The notes below the pieces were generated by a model. It did not search any database and was not told the origin of the DNA. It was given only the letters and a program-made list of their open reading frames with translations. From Acidobacteriota bacterium (GTDB lineage: Bacteria > Acidobacteriota > Thermoanaerobaculia > Multivoradales > JAHEKO01), in the NCBI GenBank assembly GCA_029263375.1, contig JAJCXP010000366.1, positions 2,402 to 66,401 of the forward strand: a DNA stretch of 64,000 nt, given 5' to 3'. Below, one piece after another: positions 30,007 to 57,510 of this stretch. The number at the start of each line of letters is the position of its first letter. Within the stretch, counting starts at the first letter, position 1. A program made the translations under genes and the position numbers.

Positions 30007-30035
30007 ACGTCCATCCACCTGAAAGGAGGTACCCC

Positions 30036-34207: not shown

Positions 34208-37200
34208 TCAGGAATCTGGACCACCCACTGCCGTCTTCGTCGCGCCACCATGCTCCGTCACGCGAGGGCGGCACTTCACTTTGATGGCGCCGTTGCTGAA
34301 AGCCTCATCTGTGGATTGGCTGGACCAGAGGTAGGCCTCGCCCGGCCGGAGGTGGGCCATCTTGTCGGGCGTGAGGCCGCGGAGGGCGGCGTTGGCTTTT
34401 TGGATGTGCTTCAGCCAGGCAGGCGAGTTGAACTTGTGCAGGATTATCTGGCTCGAGAGCTCGATGAGGGAGACAGGCACCGAGGGCGGATCCTGGCTGG
34501 CGACCATGATGCTCGTCCCCTTGTGGCGCATTTCGCGAACCACTTCGACGAGGCCGGCCACCAGGTCCGGGCTCTCGATGTACTTGTGGGCTTCGTCGAA
34601 GACCACCAGCTTGTTGAAGGCCTTCCCGTCGTGCCTCGCATCGGCGAAGAGCTGAAGGAGCACAACGAAGAGGCCCAGCGCCTCGTCCTTCTCGATGAAC
34701 TCGTCACGCAAGTCGACGATGATGAGCCGCCCCGGCCGGATGATCTCGGCAAGGCGGACGCTGTCATCGATGTACTCGGCGGCAAGGTCGAGGCGTAGGC
34801 GTGCCATGTCCTTGAGGTGGTCCGGCAGGGGCGAGCCTTCGATTCCCTGGCGTAGGCTGGCCAATGTGAGGTCGTGGCGGAGCGACTTCATCACGCGATT
34901 CAACAGGCGGATGTAGGTCGCCTGGTTGCCTACAGCGCCCATCAGGAATCGCCAGTGGCTCGTCTGGAGCTCGGCGGCGGCGAACTTCAGGGGTTGGACC
35001 TCGATCCCCTCATACTCGCGGCGGCGTTGGTCGAGCTTGTCCGCAGGCACTAGCAGTACAACGTCTGAGAGGGCCTTGGGTTTAGCGCCGAATCTCTCCC
35101 GCAGTAGCGCGATCTGGCCCTCATTCGAGTTGGGGGCCACCATCGACGTGAACTCGGGCTCGTAGTCCATCGTCGGGCTGTAGTGGAAGATGACCGTCGC
35201 CAGTGGCTGTGGCAGCTCGTTGATGTGCGGGATCGGCAGCGACGCCATCTCGGCGATTGTGCCCAGGGTGTAGGACTTACCGCCTCCCTGGACGCCGAAG
35301 AGGCTGATCGTATGCGTCTCGTTGAGATCGAGGGCGACCTTCCGCGCGGCGAGCTCGCCAAGGATCCCGTACTGGGGGGAGGCGCCCGTAGCGCCAATGA
35401 GCACGTCGTAGGGTGGCCAGTCCCGCACACCCGGAGCCTTGGGCTCTCCAGACGTGGGCGGATCTGGCTCGGCGATCGGGGACGTCGGAACCGAGTCTTC
35501 GTTCGTGAGCTTGTCCAACTCCGGTGTCACGGACTGTGGCTCGGTGGCCGAGGCGACGGTTGGCGGCGCCACAGGTCCGCTTCCACCATCGCGGCCGTCC
35601 GCGGGGTCGCTGTCCTCTGCCTCGGAAGCTGTAGAGGCGAGAGACTCCTCACCCAGGGTGTGGCGTGCTCTCAAATCTTCCCAAGAGACGGAGCGGTCGC
35701 GAGACTGCGCCAAGAAGGCCGCCTCGTCCAGCGCGGGCACAGAAGGCGCCCGCTCTCGGCGCGCCGAGAGTTGGGTGGTGCTGGACGTGCCCGGCCTCAT
35801 GAGGACGACATCCTCCGCGGCGTCGACCGCCACCTCGTCGAGGCTTGGCTCCGGCAACGCAGCATCGATGAGTTGCTGAATGAGGTCAGCGCCGATGCGG
35901 TGGTGCTCGATGCCCGACTCATGCTCGGGCGGCTCCGTCCCCGGCTTGTCGAAGTCGAAGATGATAGCCGCCCGTGTGAAGTCGAGCCGATAGCCGCTCT
36001 CGAGGCTCCTGAGGAAGAACCTGGCCTCATCGGCAGCCGCCTCGCTCATCACGCCGTAGCGAATGGCCCGATCCAAGTAGAACTCGAGCAGGGTGACCAG
36101 TTCGCGCATCTTGACTAGACGGTCCGGGCGATCCACCGGGCCGCGCCGCGGGTCAAAGTGGTAGCCGAGCATCTCCTCGCTCTGGGCGATCTGTTCCGCG
36201 ATGGAGTCCTTGAGCTGGTTGAACGCTCCGATATCGCCAACCTGCTTGTAGCACTTCACCTCGACCAGCCGGCAGGTGATGATCCGCGCCTGCGCGTCGA
36301 GGTCGAACAGCGCGAGGTCGGTGCGCTTGAAGCTGACCTCGTCGCCGAGTTCGTCCGCGCTCTTCTTGAGTGCCCGGTACAGATCGAGGTGGGCGTCGAG
36401 AGGTACTACGATCTGATTCTGAAACACTCCCTGGTGCTCGAGGTACATGCGCGAGAGCGCCAGCCCGAGGGCCTCGGCCCGCTGGCTGGGCGAAGAGATG
36501 AGCTTGAGGGCGAGGCGTCCCGATAGGGACCGCAACTGGTCGAGGATGGCCACCGCGTGACGCCCGTCGGCCTTCAAGCAGTACTCCTCGAGGACTGGCT
36601 TGAGCATCGCTTCGAGTTCGGCGACAGACCGCGAGGTGATGACCAGGCGATGGCCGAGCCCGCCCGCAAGGTCTGGCGAATGGTCGATCAGGTACTCGGG
36701 TCGACCGAAGCGCCCGCCGTGGTCGAAGAACTCGATGCCCATGTTGCGGTCGATGGTCAGGACCCAGTCACTGACCTCGTGGACCTTGTGGAGGATGGCC
36801 CGGTCCTCGGCGTCGAGCACTAGCTTCGTCACGGGCCGCAGGCCTAGCCCCGTCTCGCCGGTCGCGACCGTCGCCGCCGCACTGGAGATGAGCGCCGGCA
36901 CCGTGGAGAGCAGGTCGGTCAGCTCCTCGGCTCCGGCGAGCGGCAAGGCCAAGCCGTGCCTCGGCTGCCGTGCCCAAGCGACCGTCGTCTCGTCCTCCCG
37001 GTAGTCCACCAGGAAGTCCTGCACCAGGCCGTGGATGGGTGCCGTCGCCTCCTCGGCCGAGGCGCGCGCGGCCCCTACCTCCTCTGCTGGAAACAGGTCG
37101 AAAAGCAGCGACAGGTGCGCAGCGTGCTCCTCGGGGGCCCGGCGGAAGTCCGTCGTCGGCCGAATCGCTAACGCGAGCTTCGGCCTTAGATGACTCTCTG

Positions 37201-39793
37201 TGGGCGTGGAGAAAGCATCGGCTTCCTTGGCGGCCACTCCCGCCGTAGATGAAAGAAGATCTGCGAGCGACTCGCCGACACCGGGAGCGTCTGGGTCAGG
37301 AACGAAGAGCCGGACGTCGTAACGGATGTTGGCGAAGGCTGGTTGCTTCTGGAGCTGCAGCAGCATGGCAGCCAGCACGTTCGCCCGGCCCGCGTTGAAG
37401 GCGTTGACCACTAGGGTCCGCACGTAGGGGTGCTGAACGAGGTAGCGCAGCGCGCGCGACGCTAGGTACGTGCCGTCAATGGCGGCGCCTCCGATGGCCG
37501 GCTCGGGTAGGCCCAGCGCAGCGCACACGTCTCCCACGAGACTGCGCGGGTCTTCCTCGCGCGGCGGTGCGTACAGAGTCCAGAAGGGGTGGAGGTTGTC
37601 GATAGCCGTCAGTAGCCGACCCGCCGTCGTGGGGAGGACCGGGGGGAAACTCACCGGTGCCAGGAGGCACAGAAGTGCCTCCCGTGTTGGCACCGCGAAT
37701 TCCCTCGGAGCTGTCTTGGCTTCTAGGAGCCAGAGCTCGGACAACTCTGCCCAGGCTGCCATCCAAAGCGCCCGGAGCGGGTGCGTCGGCGCTACGAGAG
37801 CCGCCTCTCTCCGGCGGCCTCGGTGATCGCGAATCGCAAGGGTGATGCTGTCTATGGAGAGCATGTGCCGCAGATCGGCCAGTGCCAGCTTCGTCCCGCT
37901 GCCGCCCCTGGACTCAGCTCGATGGAGAAGCTCCTTAATGACTCGGGTATAGGCGTCCGCGTACTCGGTGATGAGCGGGCGAAGTGCCCGCAGGTCAGCC
38001 CCTTGGGTGACGAGTTCCTTGGTCCCTGATTGAACCGCTTCGAAGTACAGTTCTCTGGCAACGAGGAAGCGGCTCACAGCCTCTCCTTCGGGCCAACGTA
38101 CCGACTCACCGGTGGCTTGGCCTGCAGAGCCCATCGAAATCGGAATCCGCCAGCCAATGGGGCCGTCCGCCGCCCTGAGAATCCTCTGCTCCAGGATCTT
38201 GAGTGGGCGGCTCACCGGCACATTAATCGTGCCCCCGTGCCCGAGCCTGACCTCGAGCACGTCGGCTGTGGCAGCTCGAGCCCGCGACCTGCCCTCTGCC
38301 CATTCGACGGACTTGACCACGATGGCGTCGGGATCCCGGCCGTCGATGAGCGCGGTGAAGCGGGCTCGCGTGCGAGCGTGGACCAGACTGGCCTCGCGCT
38401 GCACGGCCCGCTGAGGCGGATCGACGTCCACCTCGCCATCTGGGAGTACATAAAAGAGGTCGCTCTCGTTCGGGCGGGGGGTAATCTCGTCCTCGTCGAC
38501 GGCCCAGGGGAGCGGGTTGCCTGCAGCGTCCACCAGCGGAATGAGATCGCCCTCTTCGGTCTGGGCGAGCACACGCACGAAGTGCCAGCCTTCCTCCCAG
38601 TCAACGCGCCCCAGCTTGGAGAAGCTCACGTTGGCGGCGGTGCGACTGGACTTCCAGACGGACTTGCTCCTAACGAGGCCCACCGGGCCGTGCTCCTTGG
38701 AGATCACCTGCGCGATGAGCTTGCCCAGGCCCTGGACCTTGGCCGGGTGCGGATCAACGCGGAAAGTGACGTTGAACTTGGCGAGGCTCCGCTTCCCGAG
38801 CGGGAGCACCCGCTGACCGATGAGCCGCCCGAAGCGCTTGTCCTCCTCGTCGCCTTGGACAACCGGCAGGTTGGTTTCGACATCGCCGATGAAGATGCTG
38901 TCGGGCTCTTCGCCGCCGTCGTCGAACTCCCAGCGATTAAAGGCCAGCCCCCACAGGCTTCGGTCCAGCACGATAGACCGCGTCCAGCTGCGCGGGTCCT
39001 CAACGCCGGCCTTGGCAAGGAAGTTCCCGAGCTGGATGCGGAACCCGCGGTTTGCCAGGCCCAGGTCCAGCACGCGTCCTCTCTCGGACTTGGCCGACCA
39101 TGTGAGTTTCGTGACGCAATCCTGGTTGCGCGTCACCCGAGCAGGCGCTTTTTCAGGGTACGCGAGCAGCTCGAAATCTGGCACGAGAGACAGCTCGTAG
39201 AGCGCACCTCCGAGCGCTTCCGCGTCGTACCCGTTGACCTTTGCGGTCAGCAGGAACCGCACCACGGCGACAGGATCGGCGAAGGGCCATGGCGGCACGG
39301 CATCGGTTAGGCGTCGCAGCGCCTCGCTGACTGCTCCACGGAGACCAGGCTCTAGCTCTCCCAGGAGCTGGGCACGCAGCTCGCCATACACGTCGCTGAT
39401 CGCGACATCCTCGAATGTGGCAACACCGAACGAATCCTCGGCTGCCGTCCGGATCTCTGGCGGGATGAACGCGAGCAGGGGTGGCCGCTGCGCTCCGTCC
39501 GGCAGTGGGTTGCGCAGCTCGACGAGCTTGGTGGCACTGACGGTGAGCTCCGGGGGCGTTGAAGGCCTTCGTCCGTCTCCCAGGATGACAACTTCGGCGG
39601 CTGGCACCTCAGCGCGGAGACGGCCGCACAACCGCACCATCACATCCACGTCCAGGTCGGCGATGCGCATGCAATGGCCGGCCGTCCGAGAACGAAGGCG
39701 CTCTGCCAGCTGCGGGAGCAGCATACGCTCGAGCTCAGCGGACACGTCGTAGGGCTGGAGCTCACGTAACCCCACTTGTCCAGCGCGGCTCAC
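34208..39793 (-). CDS. 1861-aa protein with C-terminal HerA/FtsK-like (DUF87-type) P-loop ATPase. Last gene of the RM-like/kinase operon
   Basis: C-terminal Walker A ISLFGVQGGGKSYTLG. Walker B KLVVFDEAHKYI. N-terminal ~1450 aa without recognised motifs. Start overlaps the upstream stop (ATGA). Confidence 0.7.
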   Translation of the reverse strand: MSRAGQVGLRELQPYDVSAELERMLLPQLAERLRSRTAGHCMRIADLDVDVMVRLCGRLRAEVPAAEVVILGDGRRPSTPPELTVSATKLVELRNPLPDGAQRPPLLAFIPPEIRTAAEDSFGVATFEDVAISDVYGELRAQLLGELEPGLRGAVSEALRRLTDAVPPWPFADPVAVVRFLLTAKVNGYDAEALGGALYELSLVPDFELLAYPEKAPARVTRNQDCVTKLTWSAKSERGRVLDLGLANRGFRIQLGNFLAKAGVEDPRSWTRSIVLDRSLWGLAFNRWEFDDGGEEPDSIFIGDVETNLPVVQGDEEDKRFGRLIGQRVLPLGKRSLAKFNVTFRVDPHPAKVQGLGKLIAQVISKEHGPVGLVRSKSVWKSSRTAANVSFSKLGRVDWEEGWHFVRVLAQTEEGDLIPLVDAAGNPLPWAVDEDEITPRPNESDLFYVLPDGEVDVDPPQRAVQREASLVHARTRARFTALIDGRDPDAIVVKSVEWAEGRSRARAATADVLEVRLGHGGTINVPVSRPLKILEQRILRAADGPIGWRIPISMGSAGQATGESVRWPEGEAVSRFLVARELYFEAVQSGTKELVTQGADLRALRPLITEYADAYTRVIKELLHRAESRGGSGTKLALADLRHMLSIDSITLAIRDHRGRRREAALVAPTHPLRALWMAAWAELSELWLLEAKTAPREFAVPTREALLCLLAPVSFPPVLPTTAGRLLTAIDNLHPFWTLYAPPREEDPRSLVGDVCAALGLPEPAIGGAAIDGTYLASRALRYLVQHPYVRTLVVNAFNAGRANVLAAMLLQLQKQPAFANIRYDVRLFVPDPDAPGVGESLADLLSSTAGVAAKEADAFSTPTESHLRPKLALAIRPTTDFRRAPEEHAAHLSLLFDLFPAEEVGAARASAEEATAPIHGLVQDFLVDYREDETTVAWARQPRHGLALPLAGAEELTDLLSTVPALISSAAATVATGETGLGLRPVTKLVLDAEDRAILHKVHEVSDWVLTIDRNMGIEFFDHGGRFGRPEYLIDHSPDLAGGLGHRLVITSRSVAELEAMLKPVLEEYCLKADGRHAVAILDQLRSLSGRLALKLISSPSQRAEALGLALSRMYLEHQGVFQNQIVVPLDAHLDLYRALKKSADELGDEVSFKRTDLALFDLDAQARIITCRLVEVKCYKQVGDIGAFNQLKDSIAEQIAQSEEMLGYHFDPRRGPVDRPDRLVKMRELVTLLEFYLDRAIRYGVMSEAAADEARFFLRSLESGYRLDFTRAAIIFDFDKPGTEPPEHESGIEHHRIGADLIQQLIDAALPEPSLDEVAVDAAEDVVLMRPGTSSTTQLSARRERAPSVPALDEAAFLAQSRDRSVSWEDLRARHTLGEESLASTASEAEDSDPADGRDGGSGPVAPPTVASATEPQSVTPELDKLTNEDSVPTSPIAEPDPPTSGEPKAPGVRDWPPYDVLIGATGASPQYGILGELAARKVALDLNETHTISLFGVQGGGKSYTLGTIAEMASLPIPHINELPQPLATVIFHYSPTMDYEPEFTSMVAPNSNEGQIALLRERFGAKPKALSDVVLLVPADKLDQRRREYEGIEVQPLKFAAAELQTSHWRFLMGAVGNQATYIRLLNRVMKSLRHDLTLASLRQGIEGSPLPDHLKDMARLRLDLAAEYIDDSVRLAEIIRPGRLIIVDLRDEFIEKDEALGLFVVLLQLFADARHDGKAFNKLVVFDEAHKYIESPDLVAGLVEVVREMRHKGTSIMVASQDPPSVPVSLIELSSQIILHKFNSPAWLKHIQKANAALRGLTPDKMAHLRPGEAYLWSSQSTDEAFSNGAIKVKCRPRVTEHGGATKTAVGGPDS

Positions 39794-41481
39794 GGCTGAC
39801 CTCCTTCACTCGAGGTGTCGGTAGGCGAGCCGTTACGACCGATCCGGTAACGGGGAACAACCGTCTGGGTGACGTAGGCGTCGGATAGGTCCTGGTAAAA
39901 GCCGACGTCCCGAAGACGCGCCATGAAGGCCTCCAGATTGGACCGTAGCGCGGCGCGATCCGCGATCGACGGAGCGTCGAAGCCGTCTCCATGGGGCAGC
40001 CGATCGATATGCAGGCCGTAGCGCTCGCGCAGGAAAGTCAACAGCGCGTCGATGCGAAGCTCACCGGTGTAGTAGCCCAGCGCTCCTCCCGGTCGCAGAA
40101 CGGCGATCTGAAGCAGCACCTCTAGGAGGCGGCTGTCGAGTACGAACCGGCGCGGTGCTTTCTTGACGCGGGGTTGAGCGATGACGGCACCGGCGCGGTT
40201 CTTCAGCAGAAGCGAGTCGATGCATTCGGTAATGTACTGGCGGTGGAACCGGCCACGCAGCGCGACGAGCATCTCGATGTAGGTCTCGAACTCGTCTAGA
40301 CCCATCTCGGTAACAGCCTTCAGCTCGGGGTCCAGGTCGGCGTCAGGCGCACCGCTGGAGTCTTGGATGAGCCCGTAAACCCGCTGGCCGAAGAACTTCT
40401 CGCGCTCGGCTTTGTGCATCGGCTCGAGGAGCTGGTGGACCTCGGCCACAGTGAAAGTCCCGCTAGGCGGGCTGGTCAGCTTGCCTCGACGCACGAGGTC
40501 GGTGGCGAACTCGTCGAGCTTCCGCGTCGCGAAATAGGCCTTTACGAAGGAGGGAACGCGGCGGTAGTGCATGTCAGCGCTCCGCTCGGCGAGCACCGCC
40601 ATGGTGGTGCCAGGCTGGCTCACGACGTCCAGCAGCAGCCCTACGCGATGCGGGCAGTCACCATGGGGATCGTCCGCGCTTTTCGAGTTCATGGGACAGG
40701 CGGCGCAGGTCGGGTCCTCACCCTTCCGCCGGACTAGCGCCGGCAGCAGCTTGAACAAGCGGAGGTGGTAGAGAGCCAAGTGAAAAGAGAACAGCACCTT
40801 CAGGTAATCGACCATCACCGATCGCGGCACGAAGCGCTGGTAGAAGAGGAGCCGCATCACGTCCTCGGCTAGCAGGTCCGCAGCCCCGACGCAGAGCGGC
40901 GGGTGGCTCTCGCGCCCCGCGCGGGTGTCCGCCGCGTCGTCCACCTGGTCGAGCAAGCGCAGCAGCGCCTGCGTCTCCACGTCGAGAATCGCCCCCTGGT
41001 CGGCACGCCCGGTGACTTTGTCGTGACCCTGGAAGAAAAAGTGGTCGAGGTGCTCGAGCGCCTTCTGCCCAGCCCCGCCGCGGGCGCCGGAGATCAGGTC
41101 ATAGAGGTGCTGCGCGGCGCCGTAGTCACGAGAGTGCTTTGGGTTGCGGAAGCGATAAGTGAATCCGTGCAACGGTCGTGGCGCGGCGATAGCCTGGTTG
41201 GCCTTGCCCCGATTGACCACGTCCATCAAATGAGTCTCGATCCAACGGAACAAGATGTCACGATGGTCGGCAAACCCGGTGAACCACTCGGGGTGCTCGA
41301 GGAACTCCTCCACGAAGGCCTCAGTCGACAGCTCAGCCTTGCGTCGTAGCCGACTCGGGAAGCCGTTGTGGGCCAAGCGCGCAAAAAAGGCCGTCAAGAC
41401 CCGGTCCATCTCGAGCTGCTTGAAGTCGAGGTGACTGATCTTGGGGAGACGAAACTCCCGGTCGCGCTTCGACAAAGCCAT
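39790..41481 (-). CDS. 563-aa conserved hypothetical protein (operon member)
   Basis: Translationally coupled on both sides. Cys cluster CAACPMNSKSADDPHGDCPH could bind metal. No family recognised. Confidence 0.5.
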   Translation of the reverse strand: MALSKRDREFRLPKISHLDFKQLEMDRVLTAFFARLAHNGFPSRLRRKAELSTEAFVEEFLEHPEWFTGFADHRDILFRWIETHLMDVVNRGKANQAIAAPRPLHGFTYRFRNPKHSRDYGAAQHLYDLISGARGGAGQKALEHLDHFFFQGHDKVTGRADQGAILDVETQALLRLLDQVDDAADTRAGRESHPPLCVGAADLLAEDVMRLLFYQRFVPRSVMVDYLKVLFSFHLALYHLRLFKLLPALVRRKGEDPTCAACPMNSKSADDPHGDCPHRVGLLLDVVSQPGTTMAVLAERSADMHYRRVPSFVKAYFATRKLDEFATDLVRRGKLTSPPSGTFTVAEVHQLLEPMHKAEREKFFGQRVYGLIQDSSGAPDADLDPELKAVTEMGLDEFETYIEMLVALRGRFHRQYITECIDSLLLKNRAGAVIAQPRVKKAPRRFVLDSRLLEVLLQIAVLRPGGALGYYTGELRIDALLTFLRERYGLHIDRLPHGDGFDAPSIADRAALRSNLEAFMARLRDVGFYQDLSDAYVTQTVVPRYRIGRNGSPTDTSSEGGQP

Positions 41482-44400: not shown

Positions 44401-45707
44401 CCCCGTGGGGTCGCCAGCTCCGGCCGATGCTCCGAGGGCTTCACCGAGAACACGCCGCCCTGATCAAAGACCTCGGTGGGACTGGCGAAAGGCTTATCGC
44501 CGGTGAAGAGCTCGTAGAGCACGAGCCCGGCGCTGAACACGTCAGAGGCCGCGCTCGCTTTCTGGGGCTCCCGGAATGCCTCGGGAGCCGTGTACAGGGG
44601 CTCCAGCTCGTCGACGATCTCGTGCGCGATGGTGCGGGAGCGATCGGTGCCTGCGCGGGCGAAGTCGAAGCCGATGAGCCGCACGCGCTCGTCAGTGCCG
44701 ATCAGAATCGTGCTCGGTGTCAGGTTGCGATGAACGACGTCGTGCTGATGCGCGTGAGCCAGGGCACCGAGCAGTTCCGACGCCACGCGCAGCTTCTGAT
44801 CAAGAGTGAGCGCAAGGTTTGCCTTGTCGATGTGCACGCGTAATGCCTGGCCGCGGACATCCTCGGTAACCAGAACGAAACGATCCTCGTGCTCGTCTAC
44901 AGGGGCGAAGTCCCGTACCCCCACGATAGCGGGATGCCCGGGCATCTGGTTTAGCGCGTTGTAGGCGTTAGCGATCCGGGCCCGCTGCTGGGCAATCTCA
45001 CCTGGGTCCGTGAGATACGGGTCTGCCTTGTAGACTCGCAGCAGGATGCGCCCCGAGCGCTTGCCGGCGAAGGTATTGAATCCGCGGTATTCCGTATACG
45101 CGTCGGTCCCACCGAGGCGCTCCTCGACCTCCCAGTTGCCGAAGCGCAGCGGCCCGGTGCGAGGCCGTGCCACACCCTGGAGCGCCTTGAGCACCATGCT
45201 GTGCAGGATGCTGATGTTCTTGGAGAAGCGACCGCCGATCCGGGCAGCGTTCTGGAATAGCCCGGGAGCCTTGAGGAGTGTGGTGACGCTCGGCGCGTCT
45301 CGACCGCTGGGATCCTGGAGCACGGCCCCGGGGGACGCGAGCAGCACCACCGCATCGACATAGACTCCTTCGAGGTCGCGACGCCCACGCTGGCTATCAG
45401 TGATGATTCCCTTGAGGCTACGCGCGTGGGCGCGGAGTTTGATGAGCGGCGAAGTGTAGGGCTGCCGTCCGTCCGGGTGCCACTTGGGCCCGTAGACGTC
45501 GATGAGCCCGCGCGTGCCCTTCACGTCGACCAGGTACACCGCGTGCGGGGCGATGACTGCCAGGTCCACCTCGAAGAGCTCTCCGCCGCGCACGATCTCG
45601 AAGTTGTGGACGAGCAAGTAGCCGTCCGGAAGGCGGTCCCGTAGGTGGCGAATGGCCCGGCGCTCGGCCTCGTTGACCGGCTCGCCGATGGGGATCACTC
45701 TTGCCAT
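41481..45707 (-). CDS. NERD-domain plus tandem protein-kinase (pseudokinase then kinase) plus P-loop NTPase protein, 1408 aa
   Basis: N-terminal NERD-like segment (VIPIGEPVNEAERRAIRHL...DLAVIAPHAVYLVDVKG). Kinase 1 has HRNLTPSTIL/GFDFAR/YTAPE, with the catalytic Asp replaced by Asn. Kinase 2 has GRPGSFGVVYKV, AMKLI, YHCDIKPRNL, DFN. Then a P-loop LVLITGNAGDGKTAFL. Confidence 0.75.
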   Translation of the reverse strand: MARVIPIGEPVNEAERRAIRHLRDRLPDGYLLVHNFEIVRGGELFEVDLAVIAPHAVYLVDVKGTRGLIDVYGPKWHPDGRQPYTSPLIKLRAHARSLKGIITDSQRGRRDLEGVYVDAVVLLASPGAVLQDPSGRDAPSVTTLLKAPGLFQNAARIGGRFSKNISILHSMVLKALQGVARPRTGPLRFGNWEVEERLGGTDAYTEYRGFNTFAGKRSGRILLRVYKADPYLTDPGEIAQQRARIANAYNALNQMPGHPAIVGVRDFAPVDEHEDRFVLVTEDVRGQALRVHIDKANLALTLDQKLRVASELLGALAHAHQHDVVHRNLTPSTILIGTDERVRLIGFDFARAGTDRSRTIAHEIVDELEPLYTAPEAFREPQKASAASDVFSAGLVLYELFTGDKPFASPTEVFDQGGVFSVKPSEHRPELATPRGGDGNASESGQASAFDNWLQRLCAFDPDRRPTAGKAATELATLLAAEASAENEPTAPEPETEPRPEVDYSQLAPGTHLTHKYLVDRRLGRPGSFGVVYKVIDTLGDVSRAMKLILRDRHSTLDRLKKEYRTLLRVPEHPNVVKVIDADLLPRGGPPFIVFEYIEGLDVGEMVEGGLFAPEDALELARQVAEGLAHLHRHGVYHCDIKPRNLIWTDRGVRIIDFNVSVLAAADNGRGGGSRRYLPPDIDLNAVPRPSDLADRDLYALGVTLYEAITGAYPWLAATPPPGEPPLDPRSISGLSDLAPELAEVAVKAIAPKRADRFASIAELQASLAGVQQARRARSETTETWATVGLDDGGSTPPNTNPFVARLLTLYSQSQQSNVGTRGLDALGERTYVETALDRQLEPAVLRGEFRLVLITGNAGDGKTAFLQRLEQRAHGNQAAFDPPLVNGRRFRLQDRTYLTNYDGSQDEGDQKSDEVLGDFFAPFAGADADAWPDDEVRLIAINEGRLVDFLTTERERFPLLERVVRVGLVSGTPEHRVAVVNLNLRSVVTATGGLELFEGDPKGGDESIFARLIRRLTHEAFWEPCNSCDLKERCYVLHNARTFQDETAGHKVIERLKTLYAITHLRGRLHITMRDLRSAVAYMLAGTRDCQAIHDLYKAGDRAAVVQGFYFNSWMGGDTANADRLLALLQEVDVGHVSDPRFDRAIDFVSPVVDRSLFRFARRADYDREVIQRLFDDLPRDYSGRPTEHRLGAHQGYVEMVRRRAFFERRDSGWRQMLPYRSAEQMLGLVRGEAPLHEVLPRILRAINRGEGLSDPGRLDGRLALRVREVERGTVRSYRVFPPERFSLAISDSAGSALFIEHMPIGLVLRYRGEAGNEAEIQINLDVFEMLERVGEGYRPSIEEEQGHYLSLAVFKNLLGSEPYQEVLLTTTGHDFYRIERHGDGRLEMKALGPVDTAPVALPADVV

Positions 45708-47110
45708 CAGGCGGCCTCCTCGATAGCGGCCTCGACGAGGGAGACTGCTTCGTCTTCGGCTGCCGTCGCACGAATCCGAGCCTCGAAGGCGTCTTGTACC
45801 CGTTTGTCCACGTTTTCCATGAAATCCTCAGGCGCCCGGACGATGGGGACGCTGGCCAGAAAGGAAGGCCAGAGCGCCGGAACCGACGCCCCGGTCATGG
45901 TCCTCGTGAGCAGCGGGTACCCGATGCTCGGTGCAGCCAAGTACGCGAAGAGATATCCTGCCGGGACTTGGTCTCCCTTCGGGACAATCCGAATCACATG
46001 ATCGGACGTCGCCGCACCATCCAGCGCCGCATCCACGAACTGGGGGCGGCCAATGATGCCACCTAGCTGCCCGGACCTCGCCAGAAGCACCCACCCCGTG
46101 TGGATGATGTACTTGTAGAGGTCCTTTGTCCGCCTCCGGGAGAGATGCTTGTCCGCCTTGCGGTTGAGCCGGAACAGCTCTCCGCTTGTGAAGAACGGGA
46201 TCCCGTACCCCGCATCTACGTAGATGTGCTTGAAAAGCGGGACATCGAAGACGTCGGCTATCAGGCCGAGTTCCCAGAAGCCGCTCGCATGCGTGGTCGC
46301 CCAGCGGTCGAGCATTGTCGCCACGGGGTTATGGAAGAAAGCATCAAAGCGACGGGAAGAACTCAGTGCGCCGACACTGACTCCATGCCCGAACCGATGG
46401 ATGTCTGACTCCCTAGGCGGAGGCGTTGGCGGACAGAGTCGGCGCTCAACCTCAGCGACGACTCCCGCCAGCCTCCTTGCTGCCGCGGTCCGCAGCCTTG
46501 CGGCTTCGCTCACCAGTTCGTGTGCTCGCCTTTCGGTTGTGTCCGCCAGTCGCGGCACCGGAAGGTCGTAGATTCTGGCGGGCGGCAGGAATGGAACAGT
46601 CCCGCCCGTCGTCCCCACAGCTACAATGGCGACTCCAAGACGCGACGCCAGGAATGCGAACAAGTAGCCGGGCCTAATCTTGCTTCGGTCAGGCACGACT
46701 TTCATCACGTTGTCCGACCCGACTTTCCCAGCCATGTCCGGTCGGACGAAGGCTACCCGTCCGACCGTGCCATACGAGGTAATGAGGGTCGTGCCTTCCT
46801 CCAACAACATGAACGGCATCGCCGTGGCTTGGCTTCTCGCGATGAGCGGAGCCGAGCTGATGTCTGCTGCCAACATCTCGGAACCAGAGAGCAGCGCGAC
46901 GCCGTGGTCAGGCGAGTCTGTATACCGCCGCGCGAACCGCGGTCCGTTGAAGATCCCCTCCTTGCCACCCCTAGTAAGGTGCGAGAGGCCTGTAGTCCGA
47001 AGCCGCCTCAGAGTCGCCCGCGCTTCGCGGGCTGCAGAAAGGTACGGGGCCGCAGACAAGCGATGACCTGACTCGAGTAGCCAGTCACTCGGCACAGACT
47101 TGTCCCTCAT
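45707..47110 (-). CDS. type I RM specificity subunit-like protein (HsdS-like, two TRDs), copy 2
   Basis: Conserved N-terminal, central (DLPVPRLADTTERRAHELV) and C-terminal (EDEAVSLVEAAIEEAA) regions, shared with copy 1, flanking two divergent TRDs. Start Met chosen by ATGA coupling at 47110. Confidence 0.6.
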   Translation of the reverse strand: MRDKSVPSDWLLESGHRLSAAPYLSAAREARATLRRLRTTGLSHLTRGGKEGIFNGPRFARRYTDSPDHGVALLSGSEMLAADISSAPLIARSQATAMPFMLLEEGTTLITSYGTVGRVAFVRPDMAGKVGSDNVMKVVPDRSKIRPGYLFAFLASRLGVAIVAVGTTGGTVPFLPPARIYDLPVPRLADTTERRAHELVSEAARLRTAAARRLAGVVAEVERRLCPPTPPPRESDIHRFGHGVSVGALSSSRRFDAFFHNPVATMLDRWATTHASGFWELGLIADVFDVPLFKHIYVDAGYGIPFFTSGELFRLNRKADKHLSRRRTKDLYKYIIHTGWVLLARSGQLGGIIGRPQFVDAALDGAATSDHVIRIVPKGDQVPAGYLFAYLAAPSIGYPLLTRTMTGASVPALWPSFLASVPIVRAPEDFMENVDKRVQDAFEARIRATAAEDEAVSLVEAAIEEAA

Positions 47111-47391
47111 GCCCCGTCCCGCGGGCACCACCGCCGTAGTGTGTCGAATAGCGAGGGACCCCTGCAGGGTGAGGTGGCGCTCAGCGCCTCCCAACCGCCA
47201 GTGCGCTGGGGCGCGGCCCCGAGAGCCGTGAGTGGCACGACTGCATCGACGGATACCCCCAGCCTTTCGCCGAGAGCGGTTTCGGAGTTAAGCATGAGGA
47301 GCTGGTCGCCCGACAGGTGATCCCGTAGGTGGCAAATGGTCCGTCGCTCGGCCTCATTGACCGGCTTGCCGATGGGGATCACCGTCGCCAT
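47107..47391 (-). pseudogene. duplicated 5' fragment of the NERD-kinase gene (first ~70 bp, then divergent)
   Basis: MATVIPIGKPVNEAERR matches kinase N-terminus MARVIPIGEPVNEAERR. The DNA at 47320-47394 nearly duplicates 45640-45710, including the junction TGATGGC. Confidence 0.5.
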
Positions 47392-48791
47392 CAGGCGGCT
47401 TCCTCGATGGCGCTCTCAACGAGGTCGACAGCTTCGTCCTCGAGAGCGACAGCCCTCTGCCTGTCGACGTACGCGCTGACTACTTCTTCGTGCACAGACC
47501 TTTGCATGTGTCGAGACGGGTAGGGCACCGGTATTTGCGCACGGTAAACGTTGTGATGGTCCTGCTGCTTGGTGCCCACTGAGATCGAGCGGAGCATCCG
47601 AAAGGCGCTTTCCGAGCGCATGAACGCGAACAAGGCTCCCCGCGGCATTATCCTCTCGTCGGCGACGATGCGAAGGATGTCCTCCGAGTAGGCGAGGCCT
47701 ACGGCCGACCCCCAAGCGAACTCAGCGCGGCAGTAGAGCTCAGATTCGCCGAGGGTGCCTCGGGCCGCCACAAGCGTAGTTCCAGCATCGACAAGAATGT
47801 CGTCCGCGACCGACGTTCTCGCAATCCACCGTCCACGAGGGCGAAGCCTAAACAGCTGCTTCTGCCCTATGAGCTCGTATGCGTACTCAGGCTCGGCGTC
47901 AATCCGCCTGTATCGACCTCCGCGCTTGAGAGTTCCTGGGACACAGATCTCGCCGAGCGGCTTCCAGGGCCCACTCCGGATGCGATCGCAAAGGCGCCTG
48001 AACCTCGGGTTGAAGTTGAGCGCGCGCAAGGACTCCACTTTTGGAAAGGTCGCCTGGAACCCGACGTCAGGGCCCTCTGACTGCCACTCGCGTGCAGTGA
48101 TGTCCTGGAGGCCAACCGAGGCGAAGAACTGAGCCGTCGTATCGGAAAGCGCACGCTGAGCTCCTGTCAGGGTAGTGCCGGCTTCGACTACGAGCGCATG
48201 CGCTCTCTCCTCCATGGCTGCGTCGAGCCGTGGGACCGGAATATCTGCGAGTTGCTCTGGCTCTACATGCTTGATGTTTCCACCATAGATCTGCTTCCGG
48301 ATCCATGCGTGCCCGAAACGACTGGCGAGAAAGGCATGGACGTAGCCGGGAGGCACTCTTGCCGAATCTGGGCGAACCCGAATGAGGTCGTGCGTTCCAC
48401 AGAGCCGATCAAAGTCTCCGCGAGCCCAGATTGCGCGGCCTAGGTTCATTCCCGAGCAGGTCACCAGGATCATCCCTGGTTGGAGCATGAGGAGGTCCAA
48501 GACGCTGCCCAACCGGAACGACAAGAAGGCCGATGGCCGGACATCCGCCTGAAGCAAAGCATTGCCAGAAACGTAGGGGCGACCATACTCCGGGCCTGCG
48601 GCGTAGATCCTCTTGAAGATCGGCCCCCTAAAGACTCCGCCGGGCGGGCAAAGGTCTCCAAGCGGGGTCGCCTTTCGGCCCAATTCTCGGAGGCGCGCTA
48701 CCGCTTGCTGGTCCTCGGACAGGTGGAAGCCACCCGTGAGCCGAGTCCCTTCGGACATGATGTCCGACGCCGAGACCGGGCCGACCCTCAT
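47391..48791 (-). CDS. type I RM specificity subunit-like protein (HsdS-like, two TRDs), copy 1
   Basis: DIPVPRLDAAMEERAHALV. C-terminus EDEAVDLVESAIEEAA. TRDs unrelated to copy 2. Start at 48791 overlaps the upstream stop (ATGA). Confidence 0.6.
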   Translation of the reverse strand: MRVGPVSASDIMSEGTRLTGGFHLSEDQQAVARLRELGRKATPLGDLCPPGGVFRGPIFKRIYAAGPEYGRPYVSGNALLQADVRPSAFLSFRLGSVLDLLMLQPGMILVTCSGMNLGRAIWARGDFDRLCGTHDLIRVRPDSARVPPGYVHAFLASRFGHAWIRKQIYGGNIKHVEPEQLADIPVPRLDAAMEERAHALVVEAGTTLTGAQRALSDTTAQFFASVGLQDITAREWQSEGPDVGFQATFPKVESLRALNFNPRFRRLCDRIRSGPWKPLGEICVPGTLKRGGRYRRIDAEPEYAYELIGQKQLFRLRPRGRWIARTSVADDILVDAGTTLVAARGTLGESELYCRAEFAWGSAVGLAYSEDILRIVADERIMPRGALFAFMRSESAFRMLRSISVGTKQQDHHNVYRAQIPVPYPSRHMQRSVHEEVVSAYVDRQRAVALEDEAVDLVESAIEEAA

Positions 48792-49420
48792 GCGCCAGCC
48801 TCCTGCGGGAACCAACGCCTTATCGAGCCCGCAAGCAGTTCGAAGGATGGATCTGTACAGCCGTGGACCGATATCGAGTCCGCGATTCGTGTGTAGACTA
48901 CTTTCGTCTTAAGCGACCTCTGTCTAACCAGCGCCTGGATCGTCTCCTTAGGCTCAGTCGGTTTGGGGGCGTCGGCTGGCCAAGCGCCCGTTCCTTCTAG
49001 GTGCCGCCGAAGGGAACCACCTGAGAAGTTCAGGGCTCGCTCCACATTTGGGTTGTCCTGCCAGAGCCAGATCTCGAGCTCCGGGTCGATCACGACCACT
49101 TCGCAGCGATCCCCCCACCCAGTCTGGCTCAACCGGGCGACGATTTCGTCGTGCACCTCATGAGCAGGGAGCTCGCCGCCATACTGTTGGTCGAGCACGA
49201 CAAGGGCGCGTCTGTGTGTGTTGAGGTAGGGCCGCAGTAGCTCGTGGGCGCTTTTGTGCACGCCACCGTCGGTGTGCATCGGATCGTGAAAAATATCTTC
49301 TTGGGGCCAAACGTCGAACCGTTGGCACTGCAGCGTCAGGTCCCACCTCTCCCGCCCAAAGAACGAGCGAAGTACTGCCACCATGGTGCTGTCAGCGCCA
49401 AGGATGACAAGCTCCCTCAT
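48788..49420 (-). CDS. small partner protein of the AAA ATPase (family unassigned; DUF4276/RloB-type partners are candidates)
   Basis: 210 aa. Coupled to the ATPase gene by a 4-nt overlap. N-terminus MRELVILGADST. Confidence 0.45.
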   Translation of the reverse strand: MRELVILGADSTMVAVLRSFFGRERWDLTLQCQRFDVWPQEDIFHDPMHTDGGVHKSAHELLRPYLNTHRRALVVLDQQYGGELPAHEVHDEIVARLSQTGWGDRCEVVVIDPELEIWLWQDNPNVERALNFSGGSLRRHLEGTGAWPADAPKPTEPKETIQALVRQRSLKTKVVYTRIADSISVHGCTDPSFELLAGSIRRWFPQEAGA

Positions 49421-50697
49421 CCTAAGATACCTGCCGCGAACAGCGTTCCGAGGTCGAGCGACTCCTTCCAGCCCACTAGGCGGGGATGCTGTGGCCCAGG
49501 CACGACCGTCGCCGCTCCATTGCGGCCGAGCCTGGCCGCCAGTAGCTGGTCAAGCTCGACGTTGGCCACAACGACAGGCGAGTGGGATGAGACGAGGACT
49601 TGACTCTCCTGCATCGAGGAAAGCGCCTCGAGTACCGTCTCGATTGCTTGAGGGTGGATTCCGTTCTCCGGCTCTTCCACCAGAAGGAGTCGAGGGGGCC
49701 GTTGGAGGTAGGTCAGCAGCGTGAGCGCGAGCACGCGCAGGGTACCGTCGGACAGGCCGGACGACGTAACGACGTGCCCGCCGTGGTAGGTCACACGGAA
49801 GTACGCGTGGTGGTCCTCCTCCCGCTCGACGGCCTCGATATCCGTCACCTGAGGTAGCGCTATGGCAACGTGCTCCTTCCAGGCAGCGAACTGATCGGGC
49901 GTCTCTTGCTGCAGCGACATGGCGAGCCACGGCAGGTTTGTCCCATCGGGCCTCACACGATCCGTCAAGCCCGGTGGGCTAGCCTTTCGCAGTTCACTCC
50001 ACACTGGGTCGAAGAGCACTGCATCCTCGGTCAGACTGTCGACAAGCCATCGGGCCGCCGGGAAATCCTCACGTGCCTCGAAACGGACCTTTGGGAGCGC
50101 CAGCAGGTCGGGTTCGAGTGCCGTGTTGCGGGCCTTGGCTCTAGGCTTGGATTCGACGCGGAGCTCGATCTCGCTGCCGTACTCGCGCCGAATGGCGAAG
50201 CGCCACTGGGGCCGTGGGCTAATCTCGCCGTGCAACCGTGCTTGGCCTCGCGGCGGTGAGTGCTGGTCGGAGAATGTAAAGAGGTACTCGTTCTGTACCT
50301 GCAGCGCCCTCTTGTCGAAGACTTGGAGGCGGAGTTCGTACCGGATGTACCTCGGCCAGCGCTGCTCGTTGCTCCGGACAGCATCAGTCGTTCCTTCGAG
50401 GAGGTCCCGTACGACACGCTCTGGGAGCCGTGCCTCGACGGCGAAGATGAACCAGTCTGCCCGTTCCTTGTGTACGAGTTCCACTAGCGAGCCCGCACGT
50501 GAACCACGCGGCTGTGTGCTCCTAAGGAACGCTGTCGAGATGTTGTCCGCCTCGATGAGATCTCCGAGCAAGATCGGAATGTCTAACAGCGTTGTCTTCC
50601 CGGCTCCGTTGGCCCCGATGATTACCCCGAAGTGGCCTAGATCCACGTCGAGCTGGTCGAAGCAGCGATAGCCGGTGGCCTCGATGCGCGTGATCAT
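49417..50697 (-). CDS. AAA/ABC-type (SMC-like) ATPase of the AAA_15/AAA_21 kind
   Basis: Walker A GANGAGKTTLL. Signature-like LSDGTLRVLAL. Walker B LLLVEEPENGIHP. Confidence 0.75.
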   Translation of the reverse strand: MITRIEATGYRCFDQLDVDLGHFGVIIGANGAGKTTLLDIPILLGDLIEADNISTAFLRSTQPRGSRAGSLVELVHKERADWFIFAVEARLPERVVRDLLEGTTDAVRSNEQRWPRYIRYELRLQVFDKRALQVQNEYLFTFSDQHSPPRGQARLHGEISPRPQWRFAIRREYGSEIELRVESKPRAKARNTALEPDLLALPKVRFEAREDFPAARWLVDSLTEDAVLFDPVWSELRKASPPGLTDRVRPDGTNLPWLAMSLQQETPDQFAAWKEHVAIALPQVTDIEAVEREEDHHAYFRVTYHGGHVVTSSGLSDGTLRVLALTLLTYLQRPPRLLLVEEPENGIHPQAIETVLEALSSMQESQVLVSSHSPVVVANVELDQLLAARLGRNGAATVVPGPQHPRLVGWKESLDLGTLFAAGILG

Positions 50698-52733
50698 GTT
50701 CCTGGCTCCCTATTCTCCTCGCGGAACTCGCGGTAGGCCTGGGCGATGCGCGGCAGGTCGTCGTCGACGATCTTCTGCTTCCGACGAAGCTCCCGCTCCA
50801 CGAAGTTCCCATTGACCCGAATCCGCTCGATGACCTTGACCTCCTCGATCCGCTCCTCGCCATCAGGGCTGCGCTTGTACAGCGTGTTGCCGCGCCGATC
50901 GAAGCCGACTCTCTCGGCAACTGCCATGAAGACCGGGTAGTCGCTAGCCGCACCCAGATCCTCGGCCTGGATTTCCTCCTGGGTCTTCTTCTTGAGGAAG
51001 AGCAAGCTCGTCAGAATGTTGACGTTGGCCTCGACGATAAACACTTCGACGGGTAGGTCAACGCTTGCGAGCACCCAGCAGTGCCGCAGGATCCACCAGC
51101 GAATGTACTCATCACCTGGGTTGCCGAGAATGCCGTCAGGCAGCACAATGCCCGTGCGCCCACCCGGCCGCAGCCAGTCGATACAGCGCTCGATAAATAG
51201 AACCTCGGGCGAGACGCTGCCGTGGTGCTTGCCGCTGTTGACGAACCCACCGCCTTCAACAGCCGCCCACCGGTTGGCCAACTCGAAGTGCTGCAGGATG
51301 TTGGGGTCTGTGACCGGGATCTCCGACCCGAAGGGCGGGTTTGTCATCACGACATCCATGGTGCCGAGACCGGCCTGCTCTCCCGCGGCTTCGACGCCCC
51401 CCAAGTGCCCGGAGGGAAATTCCAGCGAGTTCATATTATAGACGTGTCCCTGAGCGTTCGAAGCCATCACCACGTTCATCTGGGCTGCGCGAACCAGGAA
51501 AGGATCGAAGTCGGCTCCAAACAGCTTGGAGTTGGCCCATGCTGCAAGGCGGTCGCGAATTGAGAGGAACTCGTCCGTTGACTCTGCACCAGGCTGGACA
51601 GCCGCTTCCTGATGAAAGCGGCGATCCATGTGGCTGAGCACCGATACGAGGAAGCCACCCGTACCGCAAGCGGGATCGAGGACGCGTTCGCTCTCCTGCG
51701 GATCCAGCATATCGACCATCAGATCGACAGCTCCGCGGGGTGTGAAGTACTGCCCCCTGTCGCCTCGGAGGTTGTTCTTGACAATTTCTTGATACGCCGC
51801 CCCCTTGGCGTCGATGGCCGTGCGGCCGAAGTCGTACTTCGCAAGCTCCGCGACCATGAAGGCAAGGGCTCGGTCCGAGAGGGTGATCTCCTCGTTCCCG
51901 CGAAAGATGGTGTCGTAGTGTCGCTTGACTTCCTCGAAGAGCGGCTCGATCCTCGCTCGGATGGCCTGACGCCCCTCCGGATCGAACTGCTCAGTGGCGC
52001 CCGCCCAGAAGCGAGGCTCATCGTCCCTGCTGCGCTTCTCGTCGTGCATCTTCGTAAAGATCAGGTACAGAAACTGCCAGAACGCCGCGTCCTTTGGCAT
52101 GCCCTCGTTGCCGTGGATGAAGTTGTGGCAGCGCCGGAACGCGGTTCGTAGCATCTCCGGATCGGCCCTTCGCAAGCGAGCGTGCGAGACAACATCGCGT
52201 GTGCCGATGGACTCGTCGGCCATCGGCCAATCCCCAATAGGCTTGAACTTCACATCGAAGCGGCTGACCTCTTTGTCAAAGAAGAAGAAGTCGAGGCCGT
52301 TGGTCCACAGCCCGTAGCGACAGGCGGGCGCGTCGGTCATCGCGGCGTGGAGCAGGCTGAATTCCATCTTGGCCTGGTCGTGGTCTCGCATCTTGTAGGC
52401 GCCCTTCTTGGTGCGAGGTGGTTCCTTCTGGCAAACCACTAGCCGCCGGACGTTCTCGACCTCGTGGGGCTGGTCCGACTCGAAGATCGCCAGGTCGATC
52501 TTTCTCATTCGCCCGTCCACTCGCATGCGGAAGTCGGGTGCCATGTCCTCGAGCGAGATGCCGTACTCGTGGAAGAACGCACGCGCGATGCGCTGGCGCA
52601 CCTTTTCCTTTAGGGTGTCCTTGACGGGTTTGCCGGTGATGTAGTCGACGACCTGTCCCTCCTCGATAGACATGGCGTCGGTGGACTCGCCGTTTTCGCT
52701 GGTGTCGCCAGCGCGGTCCTGTGGGTCAGTCAT
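50694..52733 (-). CDS. N6-adenine DNA methyltransferase, HsdM-like, with N-terminal HSDR_N-like (restriction-endonuclease-fold) extension
   Basis: Motif I LDPACGTGGFL. Motif IV NPPFG. N-terminal KIDLAIFE...RRLVVCQKE resembles a PD-(D/E)xK domain. ATG at 52733 is preceded by AAGGAGG and overlaps the end of the upstream HTH gene. Confidence 0.8.
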   Translation of the reverse strand: MTDPQDRAGDTSENGESTDAMSIEEGQVVDYITGKPVKDTLKEKVRQRIARAFFHEYGISLEDMAPDFRMRVDGRMRKIDLAIFESDQPHEVENVRRLVVCQKEPPRTKKGAYKMRDHDQAKMEFSLLHAAMTDAPACRYGLWTNGLDFFFFDKEVSRFDVKFKPIGDWPMADESIGTRDVVSHARLRRADPEMLRTAFRRCHNFIHGNEGMPKDAAFWQFLYLIFTKMHDEKRSRDDEPRFWAGATEQFDPEGRQAIRARIEPLFEEVKRHYDTIFRGNEEITLSDRALAFMVAELAKYDFGRTAIDAKGAAYQEIVKNNLRGDRGQYFTPRGAVDLMVDMLDPQESERVLDPACGTGGFLVSVLSHMDRRFHQEAAVQPGAESTDEFLSIRDRLAAWANSKLFGADFDPFLVRAAQMNVVMASNAQGHVYNMNSLEFPSGHLGGVEAAGEQAGLGTMDVVMTNPPFGSEIPVTDPNILQHFELANRWAAVEGGGFVNSGKHHGSVSPEVLFIERCIDWLRPGGRTGIVLPDGILGNPGDEYIRWWILRHCWVLASVDLPVEVFIVEANVNILTSLLFLKKKTQEEIQAEDLGAASDYPVFMAVAERVGFDRRGNTLYKRSPDGEERIEEVKVIERIRVNGNFVERELRRKQKIVDDDLPRIAQAYREFREENREPGT

Positions 52734-52965
52734 CCAGCCCCTCCTTCGGTGTCGCGTCGCTGCTCGACTCGGCGCCGCCTTCGCGAACCCACGCGTCGAC
52801 GTCATCCTTCTTGAACTTCCAGAAGCGCCCAACCTTGTAACCGGGCATTCCCTTCCGGGTAACCCAAACGTACACAGTGTCCTTGCTCACGCCGAGGTAC
52901 TCGGCGATCTGGTCTACGGACATCCACCGGTCGTCCATCGGTCGTGCGCTCCCGTGCTGAGGCAT
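52726..52965 (-). CDS. HTH_17 (excisionase/MerR-like) DNA-binding protein. Either Xis of the island or a controller of the downstream operon
   Basis: MSVDQIAEYLGVSKDTVYVWVTRKGMPGYKVGRFWKFKKDDVDAW is an excisionase-family HTH. Translationally coupled to the MTase. Confidence 0.7.
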   Translation of the reverse strand: MPQHGSARPMDDRWMSVDQIAEYLGVSKDTVYVWVTRKGMPGYKVGRFWKFKKDDVDAWVREGGAESSSDATPKEGLDD

Positions 52966-57414: not shown

Positions 57415-57459
57415 AAGAAAACGGCTCGCCAATCGGCGAGCCCTAAGTTATTGATTCTT

Positions 57460-57510
57460 CATGGTGCCCAGGGGCGGATTTGAACCACCGACACCCTGAT
57501 TTTCAGTCAG
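57460..57510. repeat. attR: 51-bp direct repeat, overlapping the 3' end of tRNA-Phe
   Basis: Identical to 4334-4384. Confidence 0.8.

Follow-up and report, generated by a model that had tools for sequence, protein, structure and literature searches.

A probable complete MADS operon with two mad5 genes on a tRNA-Phe integrative element in Acidobacteriota

The DNA analysed here, a stretch of 64,000 nucleotides (nt) from an Acidobacteriota bacterium (assembly GCA_029263375.1, contig JAJCXP010000366.1, positions 2,402 to 66,401; hereafter the window), carries at 34208-52965 a long minus-strand operon. This operon is very probably a complete Methylation-Associated Defence System (MADS, mad1-mad8) with two mad5 genes, borne on a 53-kb integrative element at tRNA-Phe.

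Nine long open reading frames (ORFs) lie head to tail on the minus strand within 34208-52965, every one without internal stop. Start codons were picked at the stop/start overlaps of neighbouring genes, and are ATG in all genes of the operon but mad8 (GTG). Together with a tenth, short ORF between the two mad5 genes (the bridging ORF), the operon reads as follows, with protein lengths in amino acids (aa):

mad1, 52965-52726, minus strand: 79 aa, HTH_17/excisionase-like DNA-binding protein
mad2, 52733-50694, minus strand: 679 aa, N6-adenine DNA methyltransferase with an HSDR_N_2-like N-terminal domain
mad3, 50697-49417, minus strand: 426 aa, ABC/OLD-type AAA_21 ATPase
mad4, 49420-48788, minus strand: 210 aa, partner of Mad3
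mad5a, 48791-47391, minus strand: 466 aa (start at ATG 48791), first copy of the HsdS-like specificity subunit
bridging ORF, 47391-47107, minus strand: 94 codons, decayed copy of the mad6 5′ end
mad5b, 47110-45707, minus strand: 467 aa (start at ATG 47110), second copy of the HsdS-like specificity subunit
mad6, 45707-41481, minus strand: 1408 aa, NERD, pseudokinase, Ser/Thr kinase and DndF/SspF-like P-loop domain
mad7, 41481-39790, minus strand: 563 aa
mad8, 39793-34208, minus strand: 1861 aa, DndH/DptH-like, restriction-endonuclease-fold domain and C-terminal HerA/FtsK ATPase

From mad1 to mad8 the overlaps measure 8, 4, 4, 4, 1, 4, 1, 1 and 4 nt, a chain which is unbroken only with the bridging ORF counted. 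The mad1/mad2 overlap is the one of 8 nt; the mad2/mad3 and mad4/mad5a junctions are ATGA, and the bridging ORF shares 1 nt with mad5a (TGATG) and 4 nt with mad5b (ATGA). An earlier note on this DNA had described nine minus-strand genes, all joined by overlaps of 1-8 nt. All nine are indeed present and open and the other junctions are as described, but the mad5a stop (47391) and the mad5b start (47110) are 281 nt apart, with the tenth ORF between them. The domains which the note had listed (HTH_17, N6-methyltransferase with HSDR_N, ATPase, NERD-pseudokinase-kinase-P-loop, HerA/FtsK) were upheld by Pfam and by inspection of the motifs. A promoter and terminator scan gave counts not above those in shuffled sequence. 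Upstream of mad1, a perfect TTGACA (53017-53012) is followed 17 nt on by TTAATT; this was seen by eye only and does not count as evidence.

The identity of the operon was established with profile searches. All nine proteins (9/9) scored above the curated cut-off of an NCBIfam antiphage_MADS equivalog model:

MADS1, mad1: 90 bits vs cut-off 80
MADS2, mad2: 1034 bits vs cut-off 720
MADS3, mad3: 527.7 bits vs cut-off 420
MADS4, mad4: 229 bits vs cut-off 160
MADS5, mad5a: 465 bits vs cut-off 400, model positions 1-461 of 461
MADS5, mad5b: 403.9 bits vs cut-off 400, model positions 1-461 of 461
MADS6, mad6: 792 bits vs cut-off 460
MADS7, mad7: 678 bits vs cut-off 410
MADS8, mad8: 228 bits vs cut-off 175

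PADLOC-DB models likewise matched in the order mad1, mad2, mad3, mad4, mad5, mad5, mad6, mad7, mad8, with E-values of 4e-15 for mad1, 3.7e-130 for mad6, 4.6e-165 for mad7 and 1.1e-44 for mad8. Homologues in NCBI and UniRef are named 'methylation-associated defense system protein MAD7' and '... ATP-binding protein MAD8', and the Pfam family PF26611 'MAD7' is present on homologues of Mad7.

MADS was first described by Maestri et al. (bioRxiv 10.1101/2023.03.30.534895; Cell Host Microbe 2024, 32:1412) in Pseudomonas aeruginosa SMC4386, as an operon with eight genes. In that strain it confers protection from plasmids and from at least four phages, and Mad2 places N6-methyladenine on both strands of the bipartite site TCAGN4TCC (Maestri et al.). 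Restriction requires unmethylated sites, and methylated phages escape; defence depends on each of mad2-4 and mad6-8, and mad5 can be deleted only together with mad2 or mad3 (Maestri et al.). The authors' MacSyFinder model makes MAD6, MAD7 and MAD8 mandatory and treats mad3 and mad4 as accessory (bioRxiv 10.1101/2023.03.30.534895). The whole mandatory set is present at the locus, as are the accessory MAD1 (helix-turn-helix), MAD2 (N6-methyltransferase) and MAD5 (specificity subunit), and also MAD3 and MAD4 of the eight-gene form. Gene order is mad1-2-3-4-5-6-7-8 on one strand, the doubled mad5 being the sole departure, and the same order was found in three of the related loci described below (L007, L008 and L015).

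These results bear directly on what the earlier note had made of the operon: a candidate novel, methylation-associated defence operon fitting no canonical system, in which a type-I-like methyltransferase/specificity pair stands with kinase, ATPase and HerA parts in place of HsdR. In kind this was right. The claim that the operon lacks HsdR, PglZ and PglX was also sustained: scans of the operon proteins and of the other scanned window ORFs of at least 150 aa gave no REase_I, ResIII or HsdR match, and neither PglZ nor PglX. Novelty, by contrast, did not survive. The profile search which the note had proposed as a check assigned every gene to an already defined system, the second mad5 being the only extra content; and since all genes are placed in MADS, the 'MADS-like' resemblance suggested by the note, although real, fell short, the operon being MADS itself. 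A genuinely new methylation-associated defence system outside any defined family could appeal to the failure of Pfam to match Mad4, Mad5a, Mad5b, Mad7 or Mad8, to the missing HsdR, PglZ and PglX, and to the extra specificity gene and tenth ORF. With nine proteins exceeding the MAD1-MAD8 cut-offs, the PADLOC mads models in order, homologues already carrying MADS names and a system published in 2023/2024, we regard such a reading as scarcely credible.

We then consider the two specificity genes, which distinguish this MADS. Mad5a and Mad5b share 30% identity. Among the related loci, the nearest Mad5 to Mad5a is that of L006 (55%) and the nearest to Mad5b that of L009 (46%); each thus resembles a Mad5 from elsewhere more than the copy beside it, and the pair is therefore not a recent duplication in place. 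The bridging ORF between them is related to mad6. Its first 43 residues match the start of the MADS6 model (positions 1-43, E 2.2e-7), its N-terminus reading MATVIPIGKPVNEAERRTICHLRDHL and that of Mad6 MARVIPIGEPVNEAERRAIRHLRDRL. At the DNA level, identity to the mad6 start is 79% across 132 nt; a second stretch, of 105 nt, matches mad6 around codons 117-150 with 72% identity. The two junctions form a direct repeat:

Copy 1, 45577-45758: mad5b 3′ end and mad6 5′ end, 182 nt
Copy 2, 47261-47442: mad5a 3′ end and mad6 remnant, 78% identical to copy 1, spacing 1684 nt

The conserved mad5 3′ end within the repeat encodes ...LVE(S/A)AIEEAA*. If the two copies recombined, the mad6 remnant would be lost together with mad5b.

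The same layout was found in a second Acidobacteriota locus, L015: mad5, mad6 5′ remnant, mad5 and mad6, with the remnant at L015 4163-4420. There, behind the remnant, a trace of a mad2 3′ end is present as well (blastx E 0.002), which suggests that the second cassette of L015 came from a six-gene MADS, where mad2 abuts mad5. Both remnants, in the window and in L015, are open, beginning precisely at the TGATG junction and ending precisely at the ATGA junction with the mad5 that follows. In shuffled sequences the chance of an open frame is about 0.13 and about 0.23 for the two remnants; open remnants are compatible with selection for translational coupling, of which two cases are no proof. A simple model would thus have the second mad5 captured by recombination between two MADS operons, the mad6 5′ remnant being left behind as a coupled bridging ORF. 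We tentatively extend this to MADS operons in general, a proposal which we rate as a little short of probable: they may diversify their targets by capturing whole mad5 cassettes through the conserved mad5-3′/mad6-5′ junction, leaving two-specificity systems in which an open mad6-fragment ORF preserves coupling into the second mad5. If this is true, the 182-nt direct repeat could later delete the second cassette, and the arrangement would act as a slow gain-and-loss switch of specificity.

A gene remnant inside the operon, a Mad5b score barely over the cut-off and a metagenome-type contig as the sequence source could also mean that we are looking at a rearranged, partly decaying MADS, with the second mad5 or even the whole operon as non-functional cargo of a mobile element. 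We judge this unlikely: all ten ORFs are open with their start/stop overlaps kept, the catalytic motifs are intact, Mad5a and Mad5b both cover the MADS5 model from end to end, and the independent locus L015 keeps the two-specificity layout with an open bridging ORF.

To place the operon found here among its relatives, species-representative genomes were scanned with Mad7, which gave 15 related loci (L001-L015). Their sources include Polyangiaceae, Nannocystaceae, Planctomycetota, Acidobacteriota, Thermoanaerobaculales, Methylibium, Rubrivivax and Trueperaceae. Across these loci identity is 73-89% for Mad7, 63-77% for Mad8, 62-75% for Mad6 and 22-69% for Mad5; low values for Mad5 against high values for Mad6-8 are what a variable specificity subunit should show. 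Mad7 is thus the most conserved component, in loci which span Myxococcota, Planctomycetota, Acidobacteriota, Pseudomonadota and Deinococcota, and this conservation across phyla suggests strong constraint, recent horizontal spread, or both. The six-gene form mad1-2-5-6-7-8 occurs in 7 related loci, while mad3 and mad4 are present in L007, L008 and L015. The two closest relatives, obtained by exact look-up (Mad7 86% and 83%), are also six-gene operons without mad3 and mad4; the six-gene relatives are L003, L005, L006, L009, L010, L012, L013, L017 and L019. They fit the accessory status which the authors gave to mad3 and mad4, and the eight-gene form found here is therefore a mosaic, in which a conserved Mad6-8 core is combined with a Mad3/4 module that is separable.

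The operons of the closest relatives adjoin CBASS, TIR, SIR2 or KAP-NTPase genes, i.e. they lie in defence islands. Beside MADS we observed a CBASS-like set in L017 (17285-21692; SAVED, SMODS and Cap2/ThiF), TIR_2 and SIR2_2 proteins in L019 (17399-20955) and a KAP NTPase in L016 (12128-16435). L019 also encodes a longer Mad6 (5190-10001, 1603 aa), with a weak SLFN_AlbA_2 match listed between its kinase-domain matches, which may be a variant with an extra domain.

Similarly, we analyzed the individual proteins. Mad1 is matched by Pfam HTH_17 (E 1.2e-17) and is probably a regulator. Mad2 carries an N6_Mtase domain (E 5.5e-34) with motif I (DPACGTGGF) and motif IV (NPPF) both intact, and an N-terminal HSDR_N_2 domain (E 1.4e-7). 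We considered the latter as the missing nuclease and found it an unlikely candidate: the acidic residue of the putative (D/E)xK differs from one relative to another (C-D/Q/E/G-K), and a catalytic residue which is not conserved makes nuclease activity doubtful. Mad3 is an AAA_21/AAA_15/SMC_N-type ATPase (Pfam AAA_21, E 5.7e-30) with Walker A GANGAGKT, signature LSDGT and LLLVEEPENGIHP, and it also matches the PADLOC models AriA, HEC-01A and GajA. Mad4 gave no Pfam match. Its P. aeruginosa homologue is reported to be DUF4276, Toprim-like (Maestri supplementary notes; PMC12065111), and the four sequences compared share the motifs AD(G/S)T, LDQQ and (D/E)PELE.

The last three proteins form the putative restriction arm. 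Mad6 combines a Pfam NERD domain, with residues D48..D61-V-K63, and two Pkinase stretches. The first kinase has HRN where HRD is expected (pseudokinase) and the second, with HCDIKPRN and DFN, looks active. A Walker A motif (GNAGDGKT) marks the P-loop, and residues 816-1408 match the PADLOC models SspF (E 1.6e-23) and DndF (E 6.7e-9). A DndF variant described as 'NERD + inactive and active S/T/Y kinase + P-loop kinase core' is catalogued in PMC10853773 and equals the Mad6 architecture. Mad7 gave a weak PADLOC SspG match (E 2.6e-5); its P. aeruginosa homologue is reported to be DndG/DptG-like (Maestri supplementary notes). The C-terminus of Mad8 carries a HerA/FtsK-type Walker A (GVQGGGKS) and Walker B (LVVFDE), preceded by a restriction-endonuclease-fold domain at about residues 1057-1316. 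An alignment of 27 homologues showed in this domain an invariant TDL.LFDLD...RLVEVKC, i.e. a PD-(D/E)xK signature at about D1164, E1178 and K1180, and DdmD and many type II restriction endonucleases appeared below the top match in the comparison list of Mad8. The protein is annotated DptH by JGI and has weak DndH and HerA matches. DndFGH is reported to nick and translocate DNA (PMC11662687), and SspFGH to damage unmodified DNA. Taken together, the comparison supports a MADS restriction arm which is a DndFGH-family module.

The most economical model would thus combine a type-I-like marking step with a motor-nuclease of the DndFGH type. Mad2 would pair with either of the two Mad5 proteins in the manner of a type I M2S complex, and with two divergent specificity subunits, only 30% identical, the cell probably marks two different bipartite motifs. 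DNA without the methyl mark would be attacked by the DndFGH/SspFGH-homologous module, consisting of the C-terminal P-loop domain of Mad6, Mad7 and Mad8, and licensed on DNA lacking the Mad2/Mad5 mark. Because it unites a nuclease domain and a DNA translocase in one protein, Mad8, with its PD-(D/E)xK domain and HerA/FtsK translocase, would most likely be the DNA-damaging effector. The NERD nuclease and active kinase of Mad6 may act as regulators or as back-up effectors, the ABC/OLD-type ATPase Mad3 with Mad4 may form a separable add-on module, and Mad1 would be a regulator.

Several points weigh against this model or parts of it. Experimental data on MADS come from the P. aeruginosa SMC4386 homologue alone; function being known only there, the mechanism at the Acidobacteriota locus is one that we infer, and 2026 reviews and a preprint still list the MADS restriction mechanism as unknown. 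The restricted deletability of mad5 in P. aeruginosa implies a Mad2/Mad3-dependent toxicity, which does not fit Mad8 as the only effector. Mad5b passes the MADS5 cut-off narrowly (403.9 vs 400), so that its functionality is uncertain. The canonical Toprim E and DxD are absent from Mad4 in the four sequences compared. The link from Mad7 to DndG is that of the literature and of the weak SspG match, since searches of the PDB gave no sequence match (phmmer; 17-sequence profile) and the AlphaFold2 model was unusable (pLDDT 41.8). The sequence link from Mad8 to DndH is weak as well (E 5e-4 and 0.011), the Mad8 model was confident for only about 260 of the 638 residues modelled, and its comparison with the PDB by Foldseek returned nothing significant.

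The genes could also be neighbours fused in one transcript and not one system: an orphan methyltransferase/specificity pair, a stand-alone OLD/PARIS-like ATPase-Toprim pair (Mad3/4) and a stand-alone DndFGH-type module (Mad6-8) blind to the methyl mark. DndFGH modules have been argued to be commonly decoupled from modification genes and to stand alone (PMC10853773), mad3 and mad4 are missing from most relatives, and the AriA, HEC-01A and GajA matches of Mad3 point the same way. Yet in every related locus reaching that far, across several phyla, mad2, mad5 and mad6 lie side by side and their stop and start codons overlap, and P. aeruginosa needs each of mad2-4 and mad6-8 for a restriction that depends on the unmethylated Mad2 site. 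We consider independent neighbours very unlikely and retain a single MADS.

Finally, we examined the surroundings of this MADS. The operon is carried by an integrative element of 53.1 kb (window 4324-57537), with these boundaries and genes:

Island boundary, att-like repeat, 4324-4384: 61 nt, 93% identical to 57450-57510, spacing 53,126 nt
P4-type tyrosine integrase, 4522-5760: Phage_integrase, Arm-DNA-bind_3 and SAM_3, adjoining the 4324-4384 repeat
TraD/TrwB/TraG-like coupling-protein ORFs, 22218-23528, 53956-55668 and 55680-57395: inside the island
RadC, 28945-29658: island cargo
DnaG-like primase, 29721-31052: island cargo
tRNA-Phe (GAA), 57462-57537, minus strand: intact, found by ARAGORN, the other island boundary

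The 3′ 49 nt of the tRNA-Phe gene are repeated at 4336-4384, and a glycosyltransferase and an ABC transporter ATPase are further cargo. The att-like repeats and the integrase, together with the coupling proteins, RadC and the primase, indicate that the MADS operon is cargo of an element which is integrative and possibly mobilisable. The island showed no further conjugation genes, so that the element may be one which can be mobilised but does not transmit itself. The two coupling-protein ORFs on the promoter side of MADS, 53956-55668 and 55680-57395, look like one gene split in two, the latter ending in an HTH_17 domain. A PADLOC scan of ten more window ORFs, nine in the island and one SIR2-like ORF outside it, gave nothing convincing as other defence genes. 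This last ORF (1250-2386), just beyond the island boundary, has weak Pfam SIR2_2 and PADLOC SIR2 matches and may be a defence gene at the tRNA-Phe hotspot.

Elsewhere in the island, an ORF of 1581 aa (6733-11478) encodes FG-GAP, bacterial Ig and cadherin-like domains; after it come ORFs for a trypsin-like protease (12685-14481) and for fn3 (14418-15320). For a defence-carrying element this is unusual cargo. Five tandem 108-nt repeats at 27656-28387 (63-71% identical) are the Sel1 repeats of ORF 27309-28436. Outside the island lies a TIGR03436 'acidobact_VWFA' protein, with named homologues in metagenome-assembled genomes of Thermoanaerobaculia and Acidobacteriota, which points to a probable Acidobacteriota source.

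The locus opens no new category: PADLOC, NCBIfam and Pfam already contain MADS, and Maestri et al. had noted operons with multiple matches to one mad gene. The value of the locus is threefold. It documents a complete MADS of the eight-gene type on a tRNA-Phe integrative element in Acidobacteriota; its mad6 5′ remnant, with an independent parallel in L015, shows concretely how a second specificity gene arrived; and the invariant restriction-endonuclease motif of Mad8 is an obvious mutagenesis target for the MADS restriction step.

Compared with known systems, the marking side of this MADS resembles type I restriction-modification. Mad2 is a gamma-class N6-adenine methyltransferase with motif I ahead of NPPF, the specificity subunit is built of two half-domains, and the Pseudomonas homologue reads a bipartite site with both strands methylated. 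The operon differs from type I systems by the lack of HsdR, and Pfam Methylase_S matches neither Mad5; type I membership was rejected, Mad2 scoring 24.2 bits with TIGR00497 hsdM (cut-off 242.75) and no HsdR being found. With BREX type 2/Pgl it shares the PglW-like NERD and tandem kinase in the N-terminal half of Mad6 (PADLOC PglW, E 5.9e-64), but the PglW equivalog stays far under its cut-off and PglX, PglY and PglZ were not found here. This system was set aside on BREX_PglW at 194.5 (cut-off 990), PglX models at 17-18 (cut-offs 400 and 900) and the lack of PglZ and PglY. The DndFGH (DptFGH)/SspFGH modules are resembled by the C-terminus of Mad6, which matches the SspF and DndF models, and by Mad8, whose order of a restriction-endonuclease-fold domain followed by a HerA/FtsK ATPase is that of DndH. 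Here, however, self-marking is by an N6-adenine methyltransferase with a specificity subunit, and the sequence similarities Mad7-SspG and Mad8-DndH are marginal. Membership in the Dnd/Ssp phosphorothioate systems was rejected, as no dndABCDE or sspABCD was found among window ORFs of at least 150 aa (Pfam, PADLOC, NCBIfam). MANTIS, a system of a 2026 preprint, is unrelated. The MADS of P. aeruginosa SMC4386 agrees in its eight gene families, in their order and in their placement on one strand, with Mad5 of 470 aa there against 466/467 here and Mad6 of 1391 aa against 1408, and the reference Mad5 and Mad6 share the PglW and SspF side-matches with the proteins found here. In contrast to the reference, the present locus has two divergent mad5 genes with a mad6 5′ remnant between them, lies on a tRNA-Phe integrative element in Acidobacteriota where the other occupies the pheT hotspot of P. 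aeruginosa, and has a Mad6-8 core nearest to that of six-gene MADS without mad3 and mad4.

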